Source of the DNA: an uncultured Verrucomicrobiae bacterium
GTDB lineage: Bacteria; Verrucomicrobiota; Verrucomicrobiia; Chthoniobacterales; UBA10450
DNA length: 64,000 nucleotides
Assembly (NCBI GenBank): GCA_963815455.1
Contig: CAWFGO010000001.1
Span: 32,001-96,000, forward strand
Direction: 5' to 3'
In this document: piece after piece, positions 37,464 through 54,127 of the stretch
Position numbering within the stretch: the stretch's first letter is position 1
Layout: each line of letters opens with the position of its first letter
Program-made: the position numbers and the translations under genes
Notes under the pieces: model-generated
Databases searched by the model: none
What the model saw: the letters and a program-made list of their open reading frames with translations, nothing else
Told to the model about the DNA's origin: nothing

Positions 37464-38573
37464 ATGATTGCGAAATTTACTGAAAAGACCGGCGCCACCC
37501 AGTCGCATCCGCTGGCCCATGTCGATGACTATTTGGCGATCGGCCAGCAAGCTGGCGCGTCCGATATTCACCTTGGCGTAAATGTCCCGCCGATCTGGCG
37601 ATTGCACGGAACGCTCCAACCGATCTGGCCAGACGCTCCCTCTCTCACCGCAAAACAAACCAAAGCGCTGGCGGAAGGCTTTCTAGCCGACGCACAAAAG
37701 GCTCAGCTGACCGAGCGCGGCGATGCCGATTTTGCCTATGCGAATTCGTTTGGCCGGTTTCGCACGAGCGTGGTGCGCCAACGGCTCGGCGTCGATGTTG
37801 TTTTCCGCATCATCAACACCGCCGTCCGCACGATGGACGAGCTTGGTTTGCCCGAGCACCTCAAACTCCTTACGCGTTATCAGAACGGTCTGATTCTCGT
37901 GACCGGGTCCGTAGGCAGCGGCAAATCGACAACATTAGCCGCGCTGGTCGATCAAATTAACGTCGAACGCCGCGAGCACATCATTACACTGGAGGACCCG
38001 ATCGAGTACATCCTGGAACCGAAAGGATGCCACATCACGCAGCGCGAGGTGCACACGCACACACGTTCGTTCGGGGCCGCGCTGCGCGGCGCACTACGGG
38101 AAGATCCCGATGTGATCATGGTGGGCGAAATGCGCGACCTGGAAACCATCTCGCTCGCCATTACCGCCTCCGAGACCGGCCATCTGGTGTTGGGAACGCT
38201 GCACACCAGCAACGCCTCGCGGACGCTCGACCGCTTGCTGGACGTGTTTCCGGTCGATCAACAGGAACAAATTCGAGTCATGGTGAGCGAATCGTTGCGC
38301 GGAATTATTAGCCAGCAACTGGTGCCGCGTCTCGATGGCCAGGGGCGCGTTCTTGCCCTTGAAATACTAACGAACACGCCGGCCGTGGCCAACGTCATTC
38401 GTGAAGCCAAGACTTTCATGCTGCCTGGCATCATTCAGACCGGCAAGAAACAAGGGATGCAACTAATGGACGATGCCCTTGTCGATCTTTATAGAGGCGG
38501 GCTCATCAGCGCCGAAGAAGCCTACGCCCGGGCCGATCAAAAACAGGAAATGCGGACGCAGCTCGCGAAATGA
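37464..38573 (+). CDS. pilT: Type IV pilus retraction ATPase PilT family
   Basis: ASDIH, TGSVGSGKSTT, EDPIE, ALREDPD, GEMRD, TLHT. Confidence 0.93.
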   Translation: MIAKFTEKTGATQSHPLAHVDDYLAIGQQAGASDIHLGVNVPPIWRLHGTLQPIWPDAPSLTAKQTKALAEGFLADAQKAQLTERGDADFAYANSFGRFRTSVVRQRLGVDVVFRIINTAVRTMDELGLPEHLKLLTRYQNGLILVTGSVGSGKSTTLAALVDQINVERREHIITLEDPIEYILEPKGCHITQREVHTHTRSFGAALRGALREDPDVIMVGEMRDLETISLAITASETGHLVLGTLHTSNASRTLDRLLDVFPVDQQEQIRVMVSESLRGIISQQLVPRLDGQGRVLALEILTNTPAVANVIREAKTFMLPGIIQTGKKQGMQLMDDALVDLYRGGLISAEEAYARADQKQEMRTQLAK

Positions 38574-38702
38574 CGAAACACGAATGACGAATTACGAAAC
38601 AATGACGAATTACGAAGCCCGAACCTCAGCGTTCGAGCAGACTTCGTCATTCGGATTTCGTTATTCCTTCGTGCTTCGTCATTCGTCATTCGTCATTCAG
38701 TC
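38570..38702. repeat. Inverted heptamer (ATGACGA/TCGTCAT) repeat element
   Basis: Tandem AATGACG arms facing CGTCATT arms; related copy at 45120-45260. Confidence 0.8.
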
Positions 38703-39872
38703 ATGGCTTACCTGGATCAATTCCTAAGCGTGATTGTCGATCAAGGCGGGTCCGACTTGCACATTGGCGAAGGGCAACCGCCCAAAATGCGCCGGCATGG
38801 CGACGTGATGCCGATCCGCGAGGAGCCGGTGTTGCGCGACGAGGCGATGTCGATGTTGAGCGAGGTTTGTGGCGAACATAACTGGAAGATCTTCGAGGAC
38901 CGCGGCGATCTCGATTTTGCTTACGAGATGGATCAGAAATCGCGGTTCCGCTGCAATTACCTAATGCAGGCAAACGGTTACGGTGCGGTCTTTCGTTTGA
39001 TTCCGAGAAAAATCGCTACGCTGGAAGAGCTCGGCATTCCCCTGGTGGTCAAGGAATTTGGTCATTTGCGCGGCGGGCTGGTCCTCGTCACCGGCCCGAC
39101 CGGTTCCGGGAAATCGACCACGCTGGCAGCACTGGTCGATTACATTAATGAAAATTTCTCTCGCCACATCGTGACGATCGAAGAGCCGATCGAGTTTGTG
39201 CACGACACCAAGCGCAGTGTCATCACCCAGCGTGAAGTGCCCGGCGATTCGGAATCCTTTCCGACCGCACTGAAGGCCGCGCTGCGCGAGGATGCCGACA
39301 TCGTTCTGGTGGGCGAAATGCGGGACTTGGAAACGATCTCGCTCGCGCTCACGGCCGCGGAGACCGGCCTTCTTGTTTTCGGGACCTTGCACACCAATAA
39401 TGCGCGAAAGACGGTCGATCGCATGGTGGATGTTTTCCCATCGGCCCGGCAAGAGCAGGCCCGTGCCATGCTCGCCAATTCGCTGCGCGGTGTTCTGGCC
39501 CAGTTGCTCTTGAAAAAAGCGGACGGTTCCGGCCGAGTCGCCGTGAATGAGATCTTGATCTCAAATCCCGCGGTCGCGTCCATCATTCGTGAAGGGTCGA
39601 CCCAAAAACTCCAGGACGTGATCGTCTCCGGCAAAAGCCAGGGCATGCAGTTTATGGACGACGCCATTTGGGCGCTGTTGCAACAAGGCATCGTCACACC
39701 GCACGAAGCCTTCATGAAAGCGATCGACAAGAATCGATTTAAGAATTTTTTGCCGCCCGAAGATCAGCATCTCGGCGACGCGGCCGGAGCTGCGCCAGGC
39801 GACGAGAAACGCGCGCCCGGAGACTTCGTCAAGCGCGCTGGCGCCGGTGCCGTTCGCGGGCCACGGCGGTAG
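38703..39872 (+). CDS. pilT: Second PilT/PilU-family ATPase
   Basis: GSDLH, TGPTGSGKSTT, EEPIE, ALREDAD, TLHT. Confidence 0.9.
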   Translation: MAYLDQFLSVIVDQGGSDLHIGEGQPPKMRRHGDVMPIREEPVLRDEAMSMLSEVCGEHNWKIFEDRGDLDFAYEMDQKSRFRCNYLMQANGYGAVFRLIPRKIATLEELGIPLVVKEFGHLRGGLVLVTGPTGSGKSTTLAALVDYINENFSRHIVTIEEPIEFVHDTKRSVITQREVPGDSESFPTALKAALREDADIVLVGEMRDLETISLALTAAETGLLVFGTLHTNNARKTVDRMVDVFPSARQEQARAMLANSLRGVLAQLLLKKADGSGRVAVNEILISNPAVASIIREGSTQKLQDVIVSGKSQGMQFMDDAIWALLQQGIVTPHEAFMKAIDKNRFKNFLPPEDQHLGDAAGAAPGDEKRAPGDFVKRAGAGAVRGPRR

Positions 39873-48659: not shown

Positions 48660-49172
48660 GTGAGACGATCAGCAATCTGGTCGAGTTTCTGCGCAATTGG
48701 AGCGCTCCTTTTCGCGGCGCAGCTTTCCCGCGCTTCCGCGCAAATTGTCGAAATCGTGTCCAGCAACGATTGGAACGCCGCGGCGGTCCGCCTCGAGATC
48801 AGTCGCAGTCAGCGTCAGGTGACGTTGTATCGCGGCCCAATCCAGATCAAAAGCTATTCAGTGGCGATTGGTCGTCCCGGCTGGGAAACACCGACAGGAA
48901 AGTTTCACGTTCTCCAGATGCAAAAGAACCCGACTTGGAAGCATCCACTGACCGGCGAAATTTTTGGCGCGGGCGATGAAGGCAATGAGCTTGGGCAGTA
49001 TTGGATCGGATTTTTGACGACCAGCAAGGGCGCGATTGGATTTCACGATACGCCGCATCCGGAAACAGTTGGAAAAGCGGTGTCGCACGGTTGCGTGCGA
49101 ATGTTCGAGGACGATATCGCGGATTTGTTCCGGCAAGTCCGCGTCGGCACACTTGTCACCGTCGTGCCATAA
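48660..49172 (+). CDS. L,D-transpeptidase (YkuD family)
   Basis: VAIG..ETPTG.F, IGFH, SHGCVRM. Confidence 0.92.
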   Translation: MRRSAIWSSFCAIGALLFAAQLSRASAQIVEIVSSNDWNAAAVRLEISRSQRQVTLYRGPIQIKSYSVAIGRPGWETPTGKFHVLQMQKNPTWKHPLTGEIFGAGDEGNELGQYWIGFLTTSKGAIGFHDTPHPETVGKAVSHGCVRMFEDDIADLFRQVRVGTLVTVVP

Positions 49173-49228: not shown

Positions 49229-51238
49229 TCACCACAACGCCTGGACCGGATTTGGCGGATGAATCAATTCCGGCGGCGGCGGACTATCTTTGAGATAATT
49301 ATCAACTGCTTCCTTGCTGGCGTCGTCGATGTTCTTGCCCGCCTCTCTTTCGGCCTCGTGCGCTTTTTCCGCGACTTTCTCTGCGTTACGCAAATTGCCC
49401 ATCGCGCTCTTACCGTCGTCGGTCTTGCTGAAATCCTGTTTAAAATCGTTCTCGAGCTTCTTCAATTGATTATCGAGTTTCTTAAACGCGTCTTTGTCGG
49501 CGCCCGTCGCGCCAGCAGCCTTGGCTTTCTTCTCGGCATCATCACGCTGACTTTTCAAGTCGTTATAGCTTTTCTTTTGATTGAGGAACTCCTTGAACTT
49601 CTCGTTGTAATTATCTAAAGCCTCGTCTTTGAGCTGATCGGTCCAGCCAGCCTTAAACTTCTTCTCCAGCCAATCGGCAAACGGATACTCTTTTAGAAAT
49701 TTGTCCCACCAATCGAATCGGTAAACGTAACCTTTTTTCTTTTTGCCCTTTTTATCCTTCTTATCCTTTTTCGGTTTCTCTTTTGTTCCGGGGCCGGGAG
49801 TTGGCGTGTCGTTTGAAATATTGACGGTTGTCCCTGTCGCCAATTCTTCCTCCTCCGGTTCTTCCAGTTCCTTGGCCTTGGTCGAAGTCAGTTCCACTTT
49901 TTCGAAGATCGTGTCGATGCCCTCGTCGACTTTCTTTTTCGTCTCCGGCTTCATCGGCCCTTTTTCTTCGATTTGTTTGTAGACGACTTTTTGAAGGTCT
50001 TCTTTCGTAGCCGGAGTTGAGCCCGTGATTTGGCAGATTTGTGGGTCGCTCCAAACGCTCCACTGAATCACGATGTCCTTCTGCTTTTGCTTATCGTGGT
50101 AGGGCAATTCCTTGAGCTTGCCTTCTTTTTGCAATTCCTCGGCGGCATCGTACTTGGAACTGGCCAGCCGAAGCATCTCGTTTGCATCCTTCGGCCGGAG
50201 ATGCGAGCCGGCCATTTGCGTCGGGCCCCCTTCATTGATCACCAGATCGCCAGTCTCGCCTTTGCCGACTGGCGGTTTGCTTCGGTCGAGACAAACCCCA
50301 TCCATCGGCACTGTTTTGCTCTGGTTCGGACCAAGCTGAACCATCTGTTCCTTCGGACAGGCGTAATGCTGATTCTTCCCGCTGCTAGATTCCAACACCA
50401 TCGCCGGAATGACAAAGCTGACCGCCTGGTTTGTTAGGTTTTGAATTCTGCAATCGGCAATGTGGCCGATGGTTGCGCCGGTCCCAGCCAGTTCCAAAGC
50501 GACGGTCTTCTGACCAAGCAGCAAAGAAAGCGTTTTCTCCGGAGCTTTCTCAGACGAGGGCGACGGAGATCGCGTTGGGCTCGGTGATCCCTCCAAAACT
50601 AATCCGGCCGATCCCCATTTTTTTTGCAAATCACCCAGAAACGCACCGAGTTTGGGGAAACTGTTCGGATCGGACACCATGCCTTCCGAGTTTTCCCATT
50701 CTCCCGTCTTAGGATTCCGTTGCTGCGTTTTCCAAACGTCGGTCTTCCCGTCCTCCCAACCTTCAAAGGAGTATGTGACCCCAGTCGCAGGATTTTTCCC
50801 GCTCGAATCGTAGGTTTGAAAACGATCGTAAAGCATCGTGCCATCTTTGGTTGAGAAAACCTGATCCGTCTTTGACTGAAGAGTCTTTCCATCTTTCAGA
50901 TAATTGTAAGTGGTGACCGTTGTTCGATTCGTGTTTGGGTTCGACTGAACAAACACCGCCATCGCCAGCTTTTCCTGTTTCTTTCCAAATTTGACCCACT
51001 CGATCTTGGTAAGGTTTCCGTCCTTGTCCCGAGTCGTCCGCTTCTCACCAGTGCCAACAAAGGGCCCACTTTGAATACCGTCTTTACCGAAACTCACCCT
51101 TTCACTCGCGGTCGTGCCGCCGTCCAGGTTTTTTGTAACTTTCGGTTCGTCGCCGCAAACGGAAATGACGAGGCCAAACCAGCTCAGAGCGAGCAACACC
51201 CGCCATGCTCCACCGGATGCAGGGCTATTTGAACTCAT
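49229..51238 (-). CDS. Secreted multidomain hypothetical protein (operon gene 4)
   Basis: 669-aa ORF with signal peptide; central domain paralogous to the C-half of 51235-52758; ATGA overlap. Confidence 0.85.
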   Translation of the reverse strand: MSSNSPASGGAWRVLLALSWFGLVISVCGDEPKVTKNLDGGTTASERVSFGKDGIQSGPFVGTGEKRTTRDKDGNLTKIEWVKFGKKQEKLAMAVFVQSNPNTNRTTVTTYNYLKDGKTLQSKTDQVFSTKDGTMLYDRFQTYDSSGKNPATGVTYSFEGWEDGKTDVWKTQQRNPKTGEWENSEGMVSDPNSFPKLGAFLGDLQKKWGSAGLVLEGSPSPTRSPSPSSEKAPEKTLSLLLGQKTVALELAGTGATIGHIADCRIQNLTNQAVSFVIPAMVLESSSGKNQHYACPKEQMVQLGPNQSKTVPMDGVCLDRSKPPVGKGETGDLVINEGGPTQMAGSHLRPKDANEMLRLASSKYDAAEELQKEGKLKELPYHDKQKQKDIVIQWSVWSDPQICQITGSTPATKEDLQKVVYKQIEEKGPMKPETKKKVDEGIDTIFEKVELTSTKAKELEEPEEEELATGTTVNISNDTPTPGPGTKEKPKKDKKDKKGKKKKGYVYRFDWWDKFLKEYPFADWLEKKFKAGWTDQLKDEALDNYNEKFKEFLNQKKSYNDLKSQRDDAEKKAKAAGATGADKDAFKKLDNQLKKLENDFKQDFSKTDDGKSAMGNLRNAEKVAEKAHEAEREAGKNIDDASKEAVDNYLKDSPPPPELIHPPNPVQALW

Positions 51239-52758
51239 GGCTTCGGCTCTTCCTTTTTTTCGTCGACCGGCTGGTTTTCGCCTTTCGCCTCTTTCCCGGT
51301 CAGCTCAACGTTCTGGAAGAGATCGGGCGTCTCTAGTTCTTTCGCCTTCTCGCCCGTGATCTCAATCTTTTCAAAGATCGTGTCAATGCCCTTGTCGATC
51401 TTCTTCTTGGTGGCGGAGCTTGGTGTCCCTTTTTCCTCAACCTGTTTGTAGACGACCTTCGTCAGGTCTTCTTTTGTTGCCGCCGGCGTTTTTGAGATCT
51501 CGGAAATTCGCGGGTTGGTCCAGGTGGTCCATTGAAGCAAAATTTCCCTCTGCTCCTTTTTGTTTTTGTAGGGAAAATCTTTGAGCTCACCGCTTTTCTG
51601 AACCTGGTCCACGGCGTCGTAAATCGACTGGCAAATTCGCAGCAAACCGCCGGCGGCCTTCGCCGTAATATGACAATCAGAATGTTGCGCGACGCCGGGA
51701 TCGACCGTGTTCAGCACGAGTTCGCCGCTGCCGCCTTTTTCCACCGGCGGCTTGTCCCGATTAATACAAACGCCTTCCAACGGGACTATCTTGGTTTGAT
51801 GAGGCGTCAGCGTGACCTCCTGCGGCTGGGGACAGGCGTAGTCCTGGTTCTTGCCGCTCTTCGATTCAAGGAGGAGGGCCGGGATGACAAAAACCAGCGA
51901 GCCATCCGACAAGTTTTGCAGTTTAAGGTCGGCCACATGTCCGATCGTTTCGCCGGTGCCAATCGTTTCCACTTTAACTTTCTCGGGCTCCTTCCCACTT
52001 CCATTCGAATGCGACAACACATCCATCGGCTGAGCGGTAATAAAGAGGAGCAGGTTGCGCTTGTGTGGGGGATCTTTCACGAACAGCCCGCCCAGCACGG
52101 GAATTTGTCCTAGCCCGATCGTAACATCGTTAGTCGATTTCTGTTCGTCCTGGGCCCGCTGCTGGGGTTCATTTCCTGTTACCGACTGAATCCTGGGATT
52201 GAACGTCATTTCCATGCTGCCATCTGCGTTCACCCGCGGCTTGATCTCCAGAATGAGCCCCCCATCTGAAAATCCGACCGATTGGGGGACGTAAACGTTC
52301 GCCGGCTGATTGCTCGGAATCGTAATAACCGGTTGCGCAATTACGTTGACGCCCTTCTCGTGATCGAACGCCTTCAGAATCGCGTCAGATTGCTCGCGCG
52401 TGAGCAGGCCAGTGAGGTTGATGTTGCCCGGTTCCGCATCGTCGGGGAAAAACCGCTGGTCAATGATTTTAGTTGAGGGAGACGCGCCCAGACCCAAAGC
52501 CGTCGCCTGCGACGAAGAGAGGTTCGACGCATCGGAAGACAATTTCCCAAGCGCATCAGCAATGCGCGCGTCGATCCCCAATTCGCGCGTCGTGTTTCGA
52601 CTCACCTCGACAAGCTTGGCTTCGATCTGTACCTGCGGCGTCAACGTTTCGGCAAAGGTCAATTGGCCGAAGAAGAGGCAGCTGGACGCAACAATGGTGC
52701 CGGCGGCCATGAACAGGCGCACAACCGCGATCCGAACGTGCGATGTTGTCGCCATCAT
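51235..52758 (-). CDS. Secretin-core domain fused to an uncharacterised domain (operon gene 3)
   Basis: QVQIEAKLVEV..ELG, VIAQPVI, GLILEIKPRV, LGQIPVLGGLF, NLLLFIT. Confidence 0.82.
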   Translation of the reverse strand: MMATTSHVRIAVVRLFMAAGTIVASSCLFFGQLTFAETLTPQVQIEAKLVEVSRNTTRELGIDARIADALGKLSSDASNLSSSQATALGLGASPSTKIIDQRFFPDDAEPGNINLTGLLTREQSDAILKAFDHEKGVNVIAQPVITIPSNQPANVYVPQSVGFSDGGLILEIKPRVNADGSMEMTFNPRIQSVTGNEPQQRAQDEQKSTNDVTIGLGQIPVLGGLFVKDPPHKRNLLLFITAQPMDVLSHSNGSGKEPEKVKVETIGTGETIGHVADLKLQNLSDGSLVFVIPALLLESKSGKNQDYACPQPQEVTLTPHQTKIVPLEGVCINRDKPPVEKGGSGELVLNTVDPGVAQHSDCHITAKAAGGLLRICQSIYDAVDQVQKSGELKDFPYKNKKEQREILLQWTTWTNPRISEISKTPAATKEDLTKVVYKQVEEKGTPSSATKKKIDKGIDTIFEKIEITGEKAKELETPDLFQNVELTGKEAKGENQPVDEKKEEPKP

Positions 52759-53126
52759 TACTCTTTGGGCGATGTCGTCGCAGAATTATCCGATGAGGCT
52801 ACGTTCTTTGCTTTCTTTCCCGTTAACTTCACACCGATAAAAGGATTGGATTCGCCCGTGTTGGTCTCATTCTTTTTGGTTCTGGATCTATCGTGACTCT
52901 GGGAAGTGGACGATCCTTCCGACACAGCAAAAGGATCGGCCTCGCGCTTGCGCTGACCCACACCGCCAAGATCGACACTCCCGCCAATTCCGACGCCGCC
53001 GTGGCCGCCGCCATGCCCGCCCTCTTTCCCCTTACCGCCCTTGCCGCCGCACCCGCCAAAAACGTTTCCGCTGAAAATCAAAACGCCCGCCAGAACACAG
53101 GCAACGAATCTGGTTGTTTGTTTCAT
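52758..53126 (-). CDS. Small Gly-rich secreted protein (operon gene 2)
   Basis: Signal peptide; AGGAG/AAGGA RBS; TAATG coupling to the next gene. Confidence 0.75.
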   Translation of the reverse strand: MKQTTRFVACVLAGVLIFSGNVFGGCGGKGGKGKEGGHGGGHGGVGIGGSVDLGGVGQRKREADPFAVSEGSSTSQSHDRSRTKKNETNTGESNPFIGVKLTGKKAKNVASSDNSATTSPKE

Positions 53127-53142
53127 GGTGATGTCCTTTCTC

Positions 53143-53673
53143 CTATTTGGCCAGAGAGGTCAGCGGCAGGACAACCGCTTGTCCGCCCGGTAACACAATC
53201 TGGAGTTTCTTTTCGGCCGTGAAAATTTCCTTCGGCCAATCGACTTTTGTGTAAGCGTAATCCCCTTTCGGTCCGAAAATCTTGTTCAGGTTAACGCCGA
53301 CGCCGGCGCCGTGAAGCCCCGAGGTGCCGCCGTATCCACCAACCGATACCGGGAGGCCGGTATTCTCTTCATGTCCCACTTTGCGATCCTCGCGAAACAC
53401 TGGTTTCGCCGCGGCGCCGCTCTTGTCGATCAACGCGATTTGCCCGGGCTTAATCAGCTTCTTATCCGCGCCGGAAACACGAATGATGATTCGCGTATTC
53501 TCCGGCTTGGCTTGATGCAATGTGTCGCCGATGGTTTCGATTGTGTAAGCGCCGCGTTTGGCCGTGTTATGCACCGGTGTGAGCGTGCCGCCCTTTCGCG
53601 AGCCCGCCTCGACCTGAAAATCGACAATCAATCCGGCAAGGAACAATGCGACGGCAATAGATACTTTTCTCAT
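53143..53673 (-). CDS. Secreted hypothetical protein (operon gene 1)
   Basis: GGAGG RBS; signal peptide ending VEA. Confidence 0.8.
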   Translation of the reverse strand: MRKVSIAVALFLAGLIVDFQVEAGSRKGGTLTPVHNTAKRGAYTIETIGDTLHQAKPENTRIIIRVSGADKKLIKPGQIALIDKSGAAAKPVFREDRKVGHEENTGLPVSVGGYGGTSGLHGAGVGVNLNKIFGPKGDYAYTKVDWPKEIFTAEKKLQIVLPGGQAVVLPLTSLAK

Positions 53674-53952: not shown

Positions 53953-54023
53953 GCGGGTGTAGTTCAATGGTAGAACGGCAGCTTCCCAAGCTGCATACGG
54001 GAGTTCGATTCTCCTCACCCGCT
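53953..54023 (+). tRNA. tRNA-Gly (CCC)
   Basis: Acceptor GCGGGTG/CACCCGC, anticodon arm GCAGC-TTCCCAA-GCTGC, T-loop GTTCGATT; CCA not encoded. Confidence 0.96.
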
Positions 54024-54127
54024 CACTTTGCTTTCATCGCCGCCGATTTGGAGTCGCTCGCACAACGTCCGCGAAGTGCTCAAGGTCGGATGACTCCGCG
54101 TCCTTCGTGACCTTTGTCGAGGTTCCA

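Follow-up and report, generated by a model that had tools for sequence, protein, structure and literature searches.

Among described proteins, those closest to the subject of this work are the thioester domains (TEDs) of Gram-positive surface adhesins. The TED matches found by PSI-BLAST are exclusively Gram-positive (PMC4450167), and adhesin-type TEDs are described from Firmicutes and Actinobacteria (PMC13685950, 2026). The domain is described by a [YFL]C-hydrophobic-polar motif, by TQxx-hydrophobic-W on a helix and by a Gln motif that is weak (PMC4450167), its Cys is functionally required in the TED of pLS20 (PMC8092201), and its thioester Gln is drawn from a hairpin after the third helix (PMC6194298). 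We consider a four-gene operon (49229-53673, minus strand) in a stretch of 64,000 nucleotides from an uncultured Verrucomicrobiae bacterium (contig CAWFGO010000001.1, positions 32,001 to 96,000), which we call the window. The operon is one version of a variable, modular gene cassette found in a group of Verrucomicrobia, and two of its genes share a domain (the core domain) whose predicted fold, a β subdomain and a helical bundle, resembles that of Gram-positive TEDs. We propose, with a probability of roughly 0.4, that the core is a rearranged thioester clasp and joins variable modules by covalent bonds; that it has thioester chemistry of some kind we hold to be somewhat better than an even bet.

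The four genes are gene 1 (53143-53673, 176 residues, with a signal-like start and no Cys), gene 2 (52758-53126, 122 residues, a short linker), gene 3 (51235-52758, 507 residues) and gene 4 (49229-51238, 669 residues). Gene 3 consists of a signal-like start, a secretin remnant (residues 38-246, 52021-52647), the thioester-domain-like core (residues 259-479, 51322-51984) and a tail with a 12-residue Lys motif (residues 481-492, 51283-51318, from a motif pattern search), while gene 4 has a signal-like start, a variable N-terminal module (M11), a core (residues 244-462, 49853-50509, with Gln290, Cys316 and Lys456) and a variable, charged C-terminal module (M1). A first-pass annotation, made from the sequence alone, had described four co-oriented genes with signal-peptide-like N-termini, joined by a 16-nt gap, a TAATG and an ATGA, and a domain common to genes 3 and 4. 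All of this stands: the junctions are as given, the shared region covers 213 aligned residues (54% identity, E 2e-77), and each protein has a hydrophobic stretch within its first 30 residues (best 15-residue Kyte-Doolittle window 2.1-2.4). Sec export of the cassette proteins is likely. At 0.50-0.55, the G+C content of the operon is below that of the genome (about 0.56-0.57).

The core-only structure model (predicted local distance difference test score 97.2, predicted TM score 0.92) has eight strand segments followed by helices. A wide structure search over 48,161 chains ranks the TED 5a0g first (Z 6.2, root-mean-square deviation 3.5, 126 aligned residues, spanning 5-222 of the model), and among the 50 rows shown only the TED-type adhesins 5a0g, 6fwv, 5dcq and 2xi9 span both subdomains; 5dcq and 2xi9 we take to be TEDs, in part from the papers. 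With the full gene 3 model, six TED-type entries span residues 263-481. The likeness to the TEDs (CpTIE 5a0g, BaTIE 6fwv, Cpa 2xi9 and p34 of pLS20) goes beyond the predicted subdomains to a Cys at a strand end followed by hydrophobic-polar residues and a proline-rich stretch, a QxxxW on the central helix, and a secreted multidomain context. This likeness, as well as the module shuffling described below, was missed by the first-pass annotation.

The residues at these places are nearly constant. Across 262 distinct near-full core domains, Cys331 and Gln305 are each kept in 261 (gene 3 numbering; codons 51766-51768 and 51844-51846), W413 is kept in all 262, and position 409 is Gln or Glu in 261; Gln305 is invariant in the distant members as well (45 of 45 rows). 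The pattern C-hydrophobic-polar is found in 203 of the 262, Q-polar-hydrophobic-hydrophobic at 305 in 233, and Q/E-x-x-x-W (409-413) in 261, on helix 400-414 of the model, which is the TED helix motif for its Q and W only. The canonical [YF]C occurs in 20 domain rows from 10 distant proteins, one of them from a Saprospiraceae genome.

Where the core departs from the TEDs is in the source of the Gln. The C-terminal P-Q hairpin is absent, as the core ends at its last helix and several members stop there, and the alignments to TEDs break off 12-17 residues short of the thioester Gln in 5a0g and 5a0n (Gln positions from PMC4450167). Because the domain ends at this third helix with no Gln hairpin, we do not file it as a class I or a class II TED. 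Its candidate Gln is the near-invariant Gln305, at the start of the second strand in an N-terminal hairpin; it lies N-terminal of Cys331.

These features can be combined into a mechanism. The cassette proteins would be exported through Sec, and the core would serve as a covalent clasp in an assembly of the cell's own envelope. Cys331, predicted to lie at the position of the TED thioester Cys, may form the thioester with Gln305, which would stand in from the N-terminal hairpin for the missing C-terminal Gln hairpin. The amine acceptor, which is the weakest step, would be the invariant Lys of the 12-residue motif present on gene 2, on the gene 3 tail and on the last helix of each core. Subunits would in this way be joined by isopeptide bonds, with no sortase, on a base made of gene 1 and gene 2, and interchangeable modules would be fastened to a conserved partner, the secretin remnant being one such module. 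We favour a clasp acting through the Lys motif because a loop near the start of the core is nearly constant, Lys473 is conserved, and free copies of the helix end are found on other parts of the cassette. In its full form, the proposal is of sortase-free covalent assembly in Gram-negatives, in which a third class of TED reacts with the cassette's own Lys motif and polymerises shuffled passenger modules, including a domesticated secretin ring, on the gene 1/gene 2 base; this larger claim we consider doubtful. A functional analogy may be drawn between the proposed Lys-isopeptide coupling and sortase-assembled pili or donor-strand and SpyTag-type covalent assembly; the cassette would differ from these in using no sortase and no CnaB domain and in carrying its chemistry within the subunit.

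The Lys motif had been noticed in the first pass as common to genes 2, 3 and 4, and a regular expression derived from these same copies has four matches when the 3.6-Mb genome is translated in six frames, every one of them in the operon (one in gene 2, two in gene 3, one in gene 4). Two of the four are the last helix of the core itself, while the copy in gene 2 (52806-52841) is a free-standing version of the end of that helix. In 19 of 225 proteins an extra motif directly follows the core. Lys473 is retained in 199 of 201 rows, compared with 35-86% for most other columns in which Lys is the majority (K429 reaches 96%); in the 262 distinct domains its column has 246 K, 7 R and 9 gaps. In one locus (L056) the upstream gene has the Lys motif and lacks the head motif of gene 2. 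The core of the same locus (L056:7098-9221), which has no gene 1, carries about 190 residues inserted before the last helix, and therefore the helix can be displaced; L057 shares the start of this type of insertion.

Gene 2 itself is likely a mostly disordered linker with two conserved regions, a head motif (residues 44-66) and a tail motif ending in Lys (96-107). Its invariant residues in a 17-row alignment are D52, L53, G57, R59, E62, P65, F66 and K107, the last requiring a 3-residue gap in 2 rows. Relatives of gene 2 are often extended by a variable C-terminal module, and some of these modules are common to core proteins. Many relatives start with a Cys-rich CPCxPCxCxxCxC followed by His-rich runs (L016:7835-8314, L020:752-1978, L045:8719-9837, L047, L049, L054), which possibly bind metal; the copy in the window is down to one Cys.

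Gene 1 is the most conserved member of the cassette, with 402 relatives at E<=1e-3, the 120 listed being 67-82% identical, and is single-copy in 12 of 301 genomes. It has no match in Pfam, NCBIfam, PADLOC, PHROG or PDB sequences; its profile has no usable match to PDB sequences either, and its language-model (Atlas) leads score only up to 0.82. We considered gene 1 as a distant copy of the core β subdomain and rejected this (hhalign probability 0.2%, E 0.27). A membrane β-barrel is unlikely because in L019 and L035 only a few residues remain of the Gly-rich loop of gene 1.

A number of results weigh against a thioester clasp. The best fold score, Z 6.2, is below the tool's threshold of 8, is tied with unrelated partial matches, and is about half the value of about 13 between class I and class II TEDs (PMC6194298). 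Foldseek gives no core match at E<=1e-3 in the PDB and viral libraries, and the VIA comparison on Foldseek's 996 chains has no TED among the 50 rows listed. The core profile has no usable match to PDB sequences; Pfam TED (PF08341) and TED_2 (PF20610) are unmatched in the bacterium's own genome at E<=10, with a weak control for TED and a control without a match for TED_2; no TED is present in Pfam scans of 45 family members; and the 120 homologues listed for a more diverse core profile include neither a named TED nor a named ARPP-1 protein. The residue before Cys331 is V in 229 of 262 domains and not the Y, F or L of the TEDs, T precedes the Gln of QxxxW in only 17, and the hydrophobic position of the TED helix is mostly T. 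Two further results favour the clasp, but weakly. In the best profile-profile alignment with six plasmid TEDs, Cys331 falls on the Cys of YCID/FC with E 0.064, or 0.0042 for a YC-selected subset (controls 0.12-0.46), at hhalign probabilities of 0.9% and 8% over 21-26 columns and with the subset picked on that very motif. Covariation sets strand 305-311 against the Cys strand (A308-I332, Q311-E328) and links 272-304, 330-408 and 412-468, from about 137 effective sequences and in a register that could also place Cys309 opposite Cys331. Finally, what points to the Lys-acceptor step is conservation, and the motif may be no more than a duplicated helix end.

Weak fold and profile scores of this kind favour a rival reading of the cassette as a non-covalent modular scaffold, with a TED-like or unrelated fold, no reactive bond, invariant residues that are structural, and docking by exchange of the last helix or no docking at all. 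The lack of a canonical C-terminal Gln hairpin fits such a scaffold, as does the fact that 203 of 262 domains have both Cys309 and Cys331, and so do the even Cys counts of the window proteins; each of the window's two cores has four Cys, which is compatible with all-disulfide pairing and is a further point against the clasp. All-disulfide pairing could hold for the proteins of the window itself; it cannot hold for the 19 domains in which Cys331 is the sole Cys, or for the five-Cys majority patterns. Cys331 is invariant whatever its partner, persisting in 58 domains that lack Cys309; the Cys count is odd in 166 of the 261 domains that bear it, and the two commonest patterns (90 domains), with five Cys each, must leave one Cys without a partner. 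The constancy of Gln305 out to the distant members also speaks against a purely structural role. A scaffold is, in our estimate, unlikely, though it deserves to be taken seriously.

A different possibility is that the thioester is real and directed outward, the core being a covalent adhesin or envelope anchor that reacts with a foreign protein or a peptidoglycan amine and not with the Lys motif of the cassette. This is the established chemistry of TEDs (PMC4450167, PMC8092201), the fold evidence for it is identical to that for the clasp, and genes for a penicillin-binding protein (PBP) and an L,D-transpeptidase flank the slot in which the cassette lies. The pattern of variation is, however, the reverse of that in the TIE adhesins. 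The loop after the first strand of the core reads GTGETIGH in 189 of 262 domains; the loop at the same position in TEDs, if the two are equivalent as we suppose, is variable and chooses targets (PMC4450167, PMC6194298). In the cassette the core is central and constant, the flanks are variable, and the core is accompanied by genes 1 and 2 and by a Lys motif that is repeated. There is no visible LPXTG, isopeptide stalk or C-terminal membrane segment, genes 3 and 4 having no C-terminal hydrophobic segment, and this reading does not explain the free Lys motif on gene 2. The PBP gene, moreover, is also present in 5 of 5 cassette-free genomes examined. Such an outward role appears improbable.

Coupling of variable modules by a clasp presupposes that the modules do vary, and this is observed. 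In 226 proteins with a single core, the flanking segments form 70 clusters and 87 N/C combinations, a cluster count possibly inflated by low-complexity helical segments and fragments. M1 and M13, two of the larger clusters, occur on both the N- and the C-terminal side of the core. Among 408 pairs of proteins whose cores are at least 85% identical, the N module differs in 70 and the C module in 54. What remains constant is gene 1, gene 2 and the 221-residue core, with one to four core genes in each cassette.

Variable modules and tandem paralogues are also features of polymorphic toxins, and the core could serve as the delivery or catalytic domain of a toxin or of a secreted Cys-enzyme family. 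A few members do carry peptidase modules: the passengers of P0150, P0089 and P0206 are a reprolysin-like HExxH metallopeptidase or a weak C39-like peptidase. Against this, the variation lies on both sides of the core; Pfam scans of the 45 members include no toxin family, and PADLOC has no match for the four genes. No small immunity-like gene follows gene 4, whose stop is 56 bases from the convergent L,D-transpeptidase gene and leaves no room for one, and among the most conserved columns there is no invariant His or Asp partner. We give this explanation hardly any credence.

The first-pass annotation placed another part of gene 3 at the center, describing the operon as built around a secretin fusion and as a stand-alone outer-membrane or surface assembly. 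The secretin motifs it had noticed are genuine. Gene 3 scores 30.7 bits against Pfam Secretin (PF00263, cut-off 27.5); residues 38-246 share the strand order of the secretins (GspD, PilQ, RcpA, pIV, Amuc_1098-like), with fold matches of Z 5.0-6.6; the nearest of the genome's own secretins is Amuc_1098-like (E 6e-14, with relatives down to 1e-25); and in PHROGs only the phage pIV is matched, by the secretin part. The fusion is kept in 29 proteins, with 42-59% identity among those aligned. These facts favour a stand-alone outer-membrane channel or secretion system centered on gene 3.

The remnant is truncated, however, in the parts that a channel needs. N3 and the gates are common to all secretins compared in one study (10.1101/2021.07.20.453082), and the amphipathic loop is essential for membrane insertion (PMC8134430). 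In gene 3 the N domains (N0, N3) are missing, so that the secretin strands start directly after the signal-like segment; both gate hairpins are shortened; and the amphipathic membrane-loop region has a 26-residue gap relative to two of the genome's secretins. Gene 3 does retain a segment resembling the latter half of the amphipathic loop, for which the model builds a strand and no helix, and family members apparently differ in which side of the gap they keep. Because it lacks N domains and has short gates and a gapped membrane loop, the remnant is probably not a working channel; at most, it would form rings as a scaffold and would not act as a gated channel.

The secretin module is, in addition, optional in the family. 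It is absent from 245 of 274 core proteins and from 38 of 40 loci, and three full-length secretins are encoded elsewhere in the genome. In a FastTree phylogeny of 232 cores, the 28 secretin-bearing tips lie inside a 42-tip clade, mixed with 14 others. A channel or secretion system centered on gene 3 is thus very improbable, and the description of an operon built around a secretin has to be dropped. A stand-alone envelope or surface assembly is still the likeliest reading of the cassette, with the secretin not at its center.

Other statements of the first pass about secretion systems agree with our results. It had reported no ATPase or inner-membrane platform gene in the operon, and we find no Walker A motif in its long reading frames. 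The locus is not that of a type II or type III secretion system, a type IV pilus or a Tad system, as was also claimed: the ATPase, the platform and co-transcribed pilins are absent, and the pilin-like gene nearby is convergent and exists without the cassette. Two adjacent PilT-like ATPase reading frames do occur in the window (37464-39872, plus strand, Walker A at 37905 and 39093), about 10 kb off the cassette, and are likely ordinary pilus retraction genes.

We also examined whether the neighbourhood is conserved, and the cluster is indeed found across genomes. In one relative (G458) all four genes recur with their order unchanged, together with the convergent L,D-transpeptidase, and another (G023) has genes 1, 2 and 3, three further core genes (one in three frames) and the transpeptidase. 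The broken gene, the second core gene of that locus (L016:9859-11357), is either a pseudogene or an assembly error. In the 300 relatives searched, the core is in 11 and gene 1 in 11, with both in 10, that is, in 10 of the 12 having either; we give these counts with no p-value, as the genomes are kin and not independent. The exceptions are G025, with the core only, and G706, with gene 1 only (77% complete, the match lying close to the end of a contig). A search of 400 genomes sampled from the whole phylum did not find the core. We examined 41 non-duplicate loci, and in 40 of them the core match covers 100 residues or more. Gene 1 is present in 22 of these 40 and in 9 of the 14 that have 2.5 kb on both sides; 2 loci have the secretin module, and these 2 also have the transpeptidase, while a pilin-like gene is in 15 and a PBP gene in 10.

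A hidden Markov model (HMM) search of 1.84 billion representatives gives 502 matches at E<=1e-3, with multi-core proteins among the 150 listed. One core locus is in a Planctomycetota bin, and one distant member comes from a Saprospiraceae genome, the only one named of ten distant members. The distant proteins with two cores in tandem and the canonical YC/FC are P0200, P0201, P0211, P0213, P0215-P0217, P0220, P0222 and P0223; an eCIS-core (DUF4157) domain is additionally present in P0211, the Saprospiraceae protein. In a second genomic context (L019:6439-8681, L026:6469-8696, L043:6451-8678), the core gene overlaps an upstream reading frame of about 385 residues that starts 'SAVSRELKSAR...' and shares a WWSYS repeat with the N module of the core protein.

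As the first-pass annotation had it, the operon lies between a tRNA-Gly gene (53953-54024, plus strand) and two convergent neighbours, a pilin-like gene and a YkuD L,D-transpeptidase gene (48660-49172, plus strand, Pfam YkuD E 2e-25). A scan found no promoter. The tRNA-Gly gene adjoins the cassette in many related loci. The pilin-like gene was considered as a member of the cassette and set aside: it is kept in 5 of 5 cassette-free genomes examined and only marks the chromosomal slot. In one such genome (G006) only about 1 kb, and no cassette, separates the pilin-like gene from the PBP gene, and therefore the cassette fills a variable slot beside tRNA-Gly. The L,D-transpeptidase accompanies only the three secretin-bearing cassettes seen, those of the window, G023 (L016:14682-15281) and G458 (L084:7064-7441, where the match has one internal TGA). 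With the window gene as query, no close orthologue is found in 4 other core-positive genomes, and the transpeptidase is possibly an accessory of the secretin-bearing version of the cassette. The window's own genome (G000) has at least 12 more L,D-transpeptidase-like matches.

How far is the cassette from what has been described? Searched against Pfam, NCBIfam, PADLOC and PHROGs, the four genes match no described system beyond the secretin part. ARPP-1 (PF20208) is a language-model (Atlas) lead at 0.81, a score within the tool's stated chance range, and its HMM has no match in the own genome at E<=10; it may share with the core a Gln-then-Cys pattern in a β-sandwich. The host is Gram-negative, and the relatives carry names of Chthoniobacterales or Verrucomicrobia. 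In searches of the open literature, which leaves most subscription papers outside, we find no Gram-negative adhesin-type TED, no Gram-negative example apart from α-2-macroglobulins, and no account of this cassette, of truncated secretins in the lineage or of its surface proteins.

The cassette is real, undescribed and modular. On present evidence it is a variant of the thioester surface-protein kind, and it would become categorically new if self-coupling were shown. In the secretin-bearing version, evolution has retained what amounts to a natural secretin deletion mutant in 29 proteins. If the proposed clasp is correct, the occurrence of TED-like domains in Verrucomicrobia, in a Planctomycetota bin and in Bacteroidota would widen the TED family to members with a different source of Gln, and the pairing of a self-reacting domain with its tag would be a new tool for protein ligation. 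The logic of the TED would also be reversed, from a variable harpoon to a constant clasp with a constant target loop.

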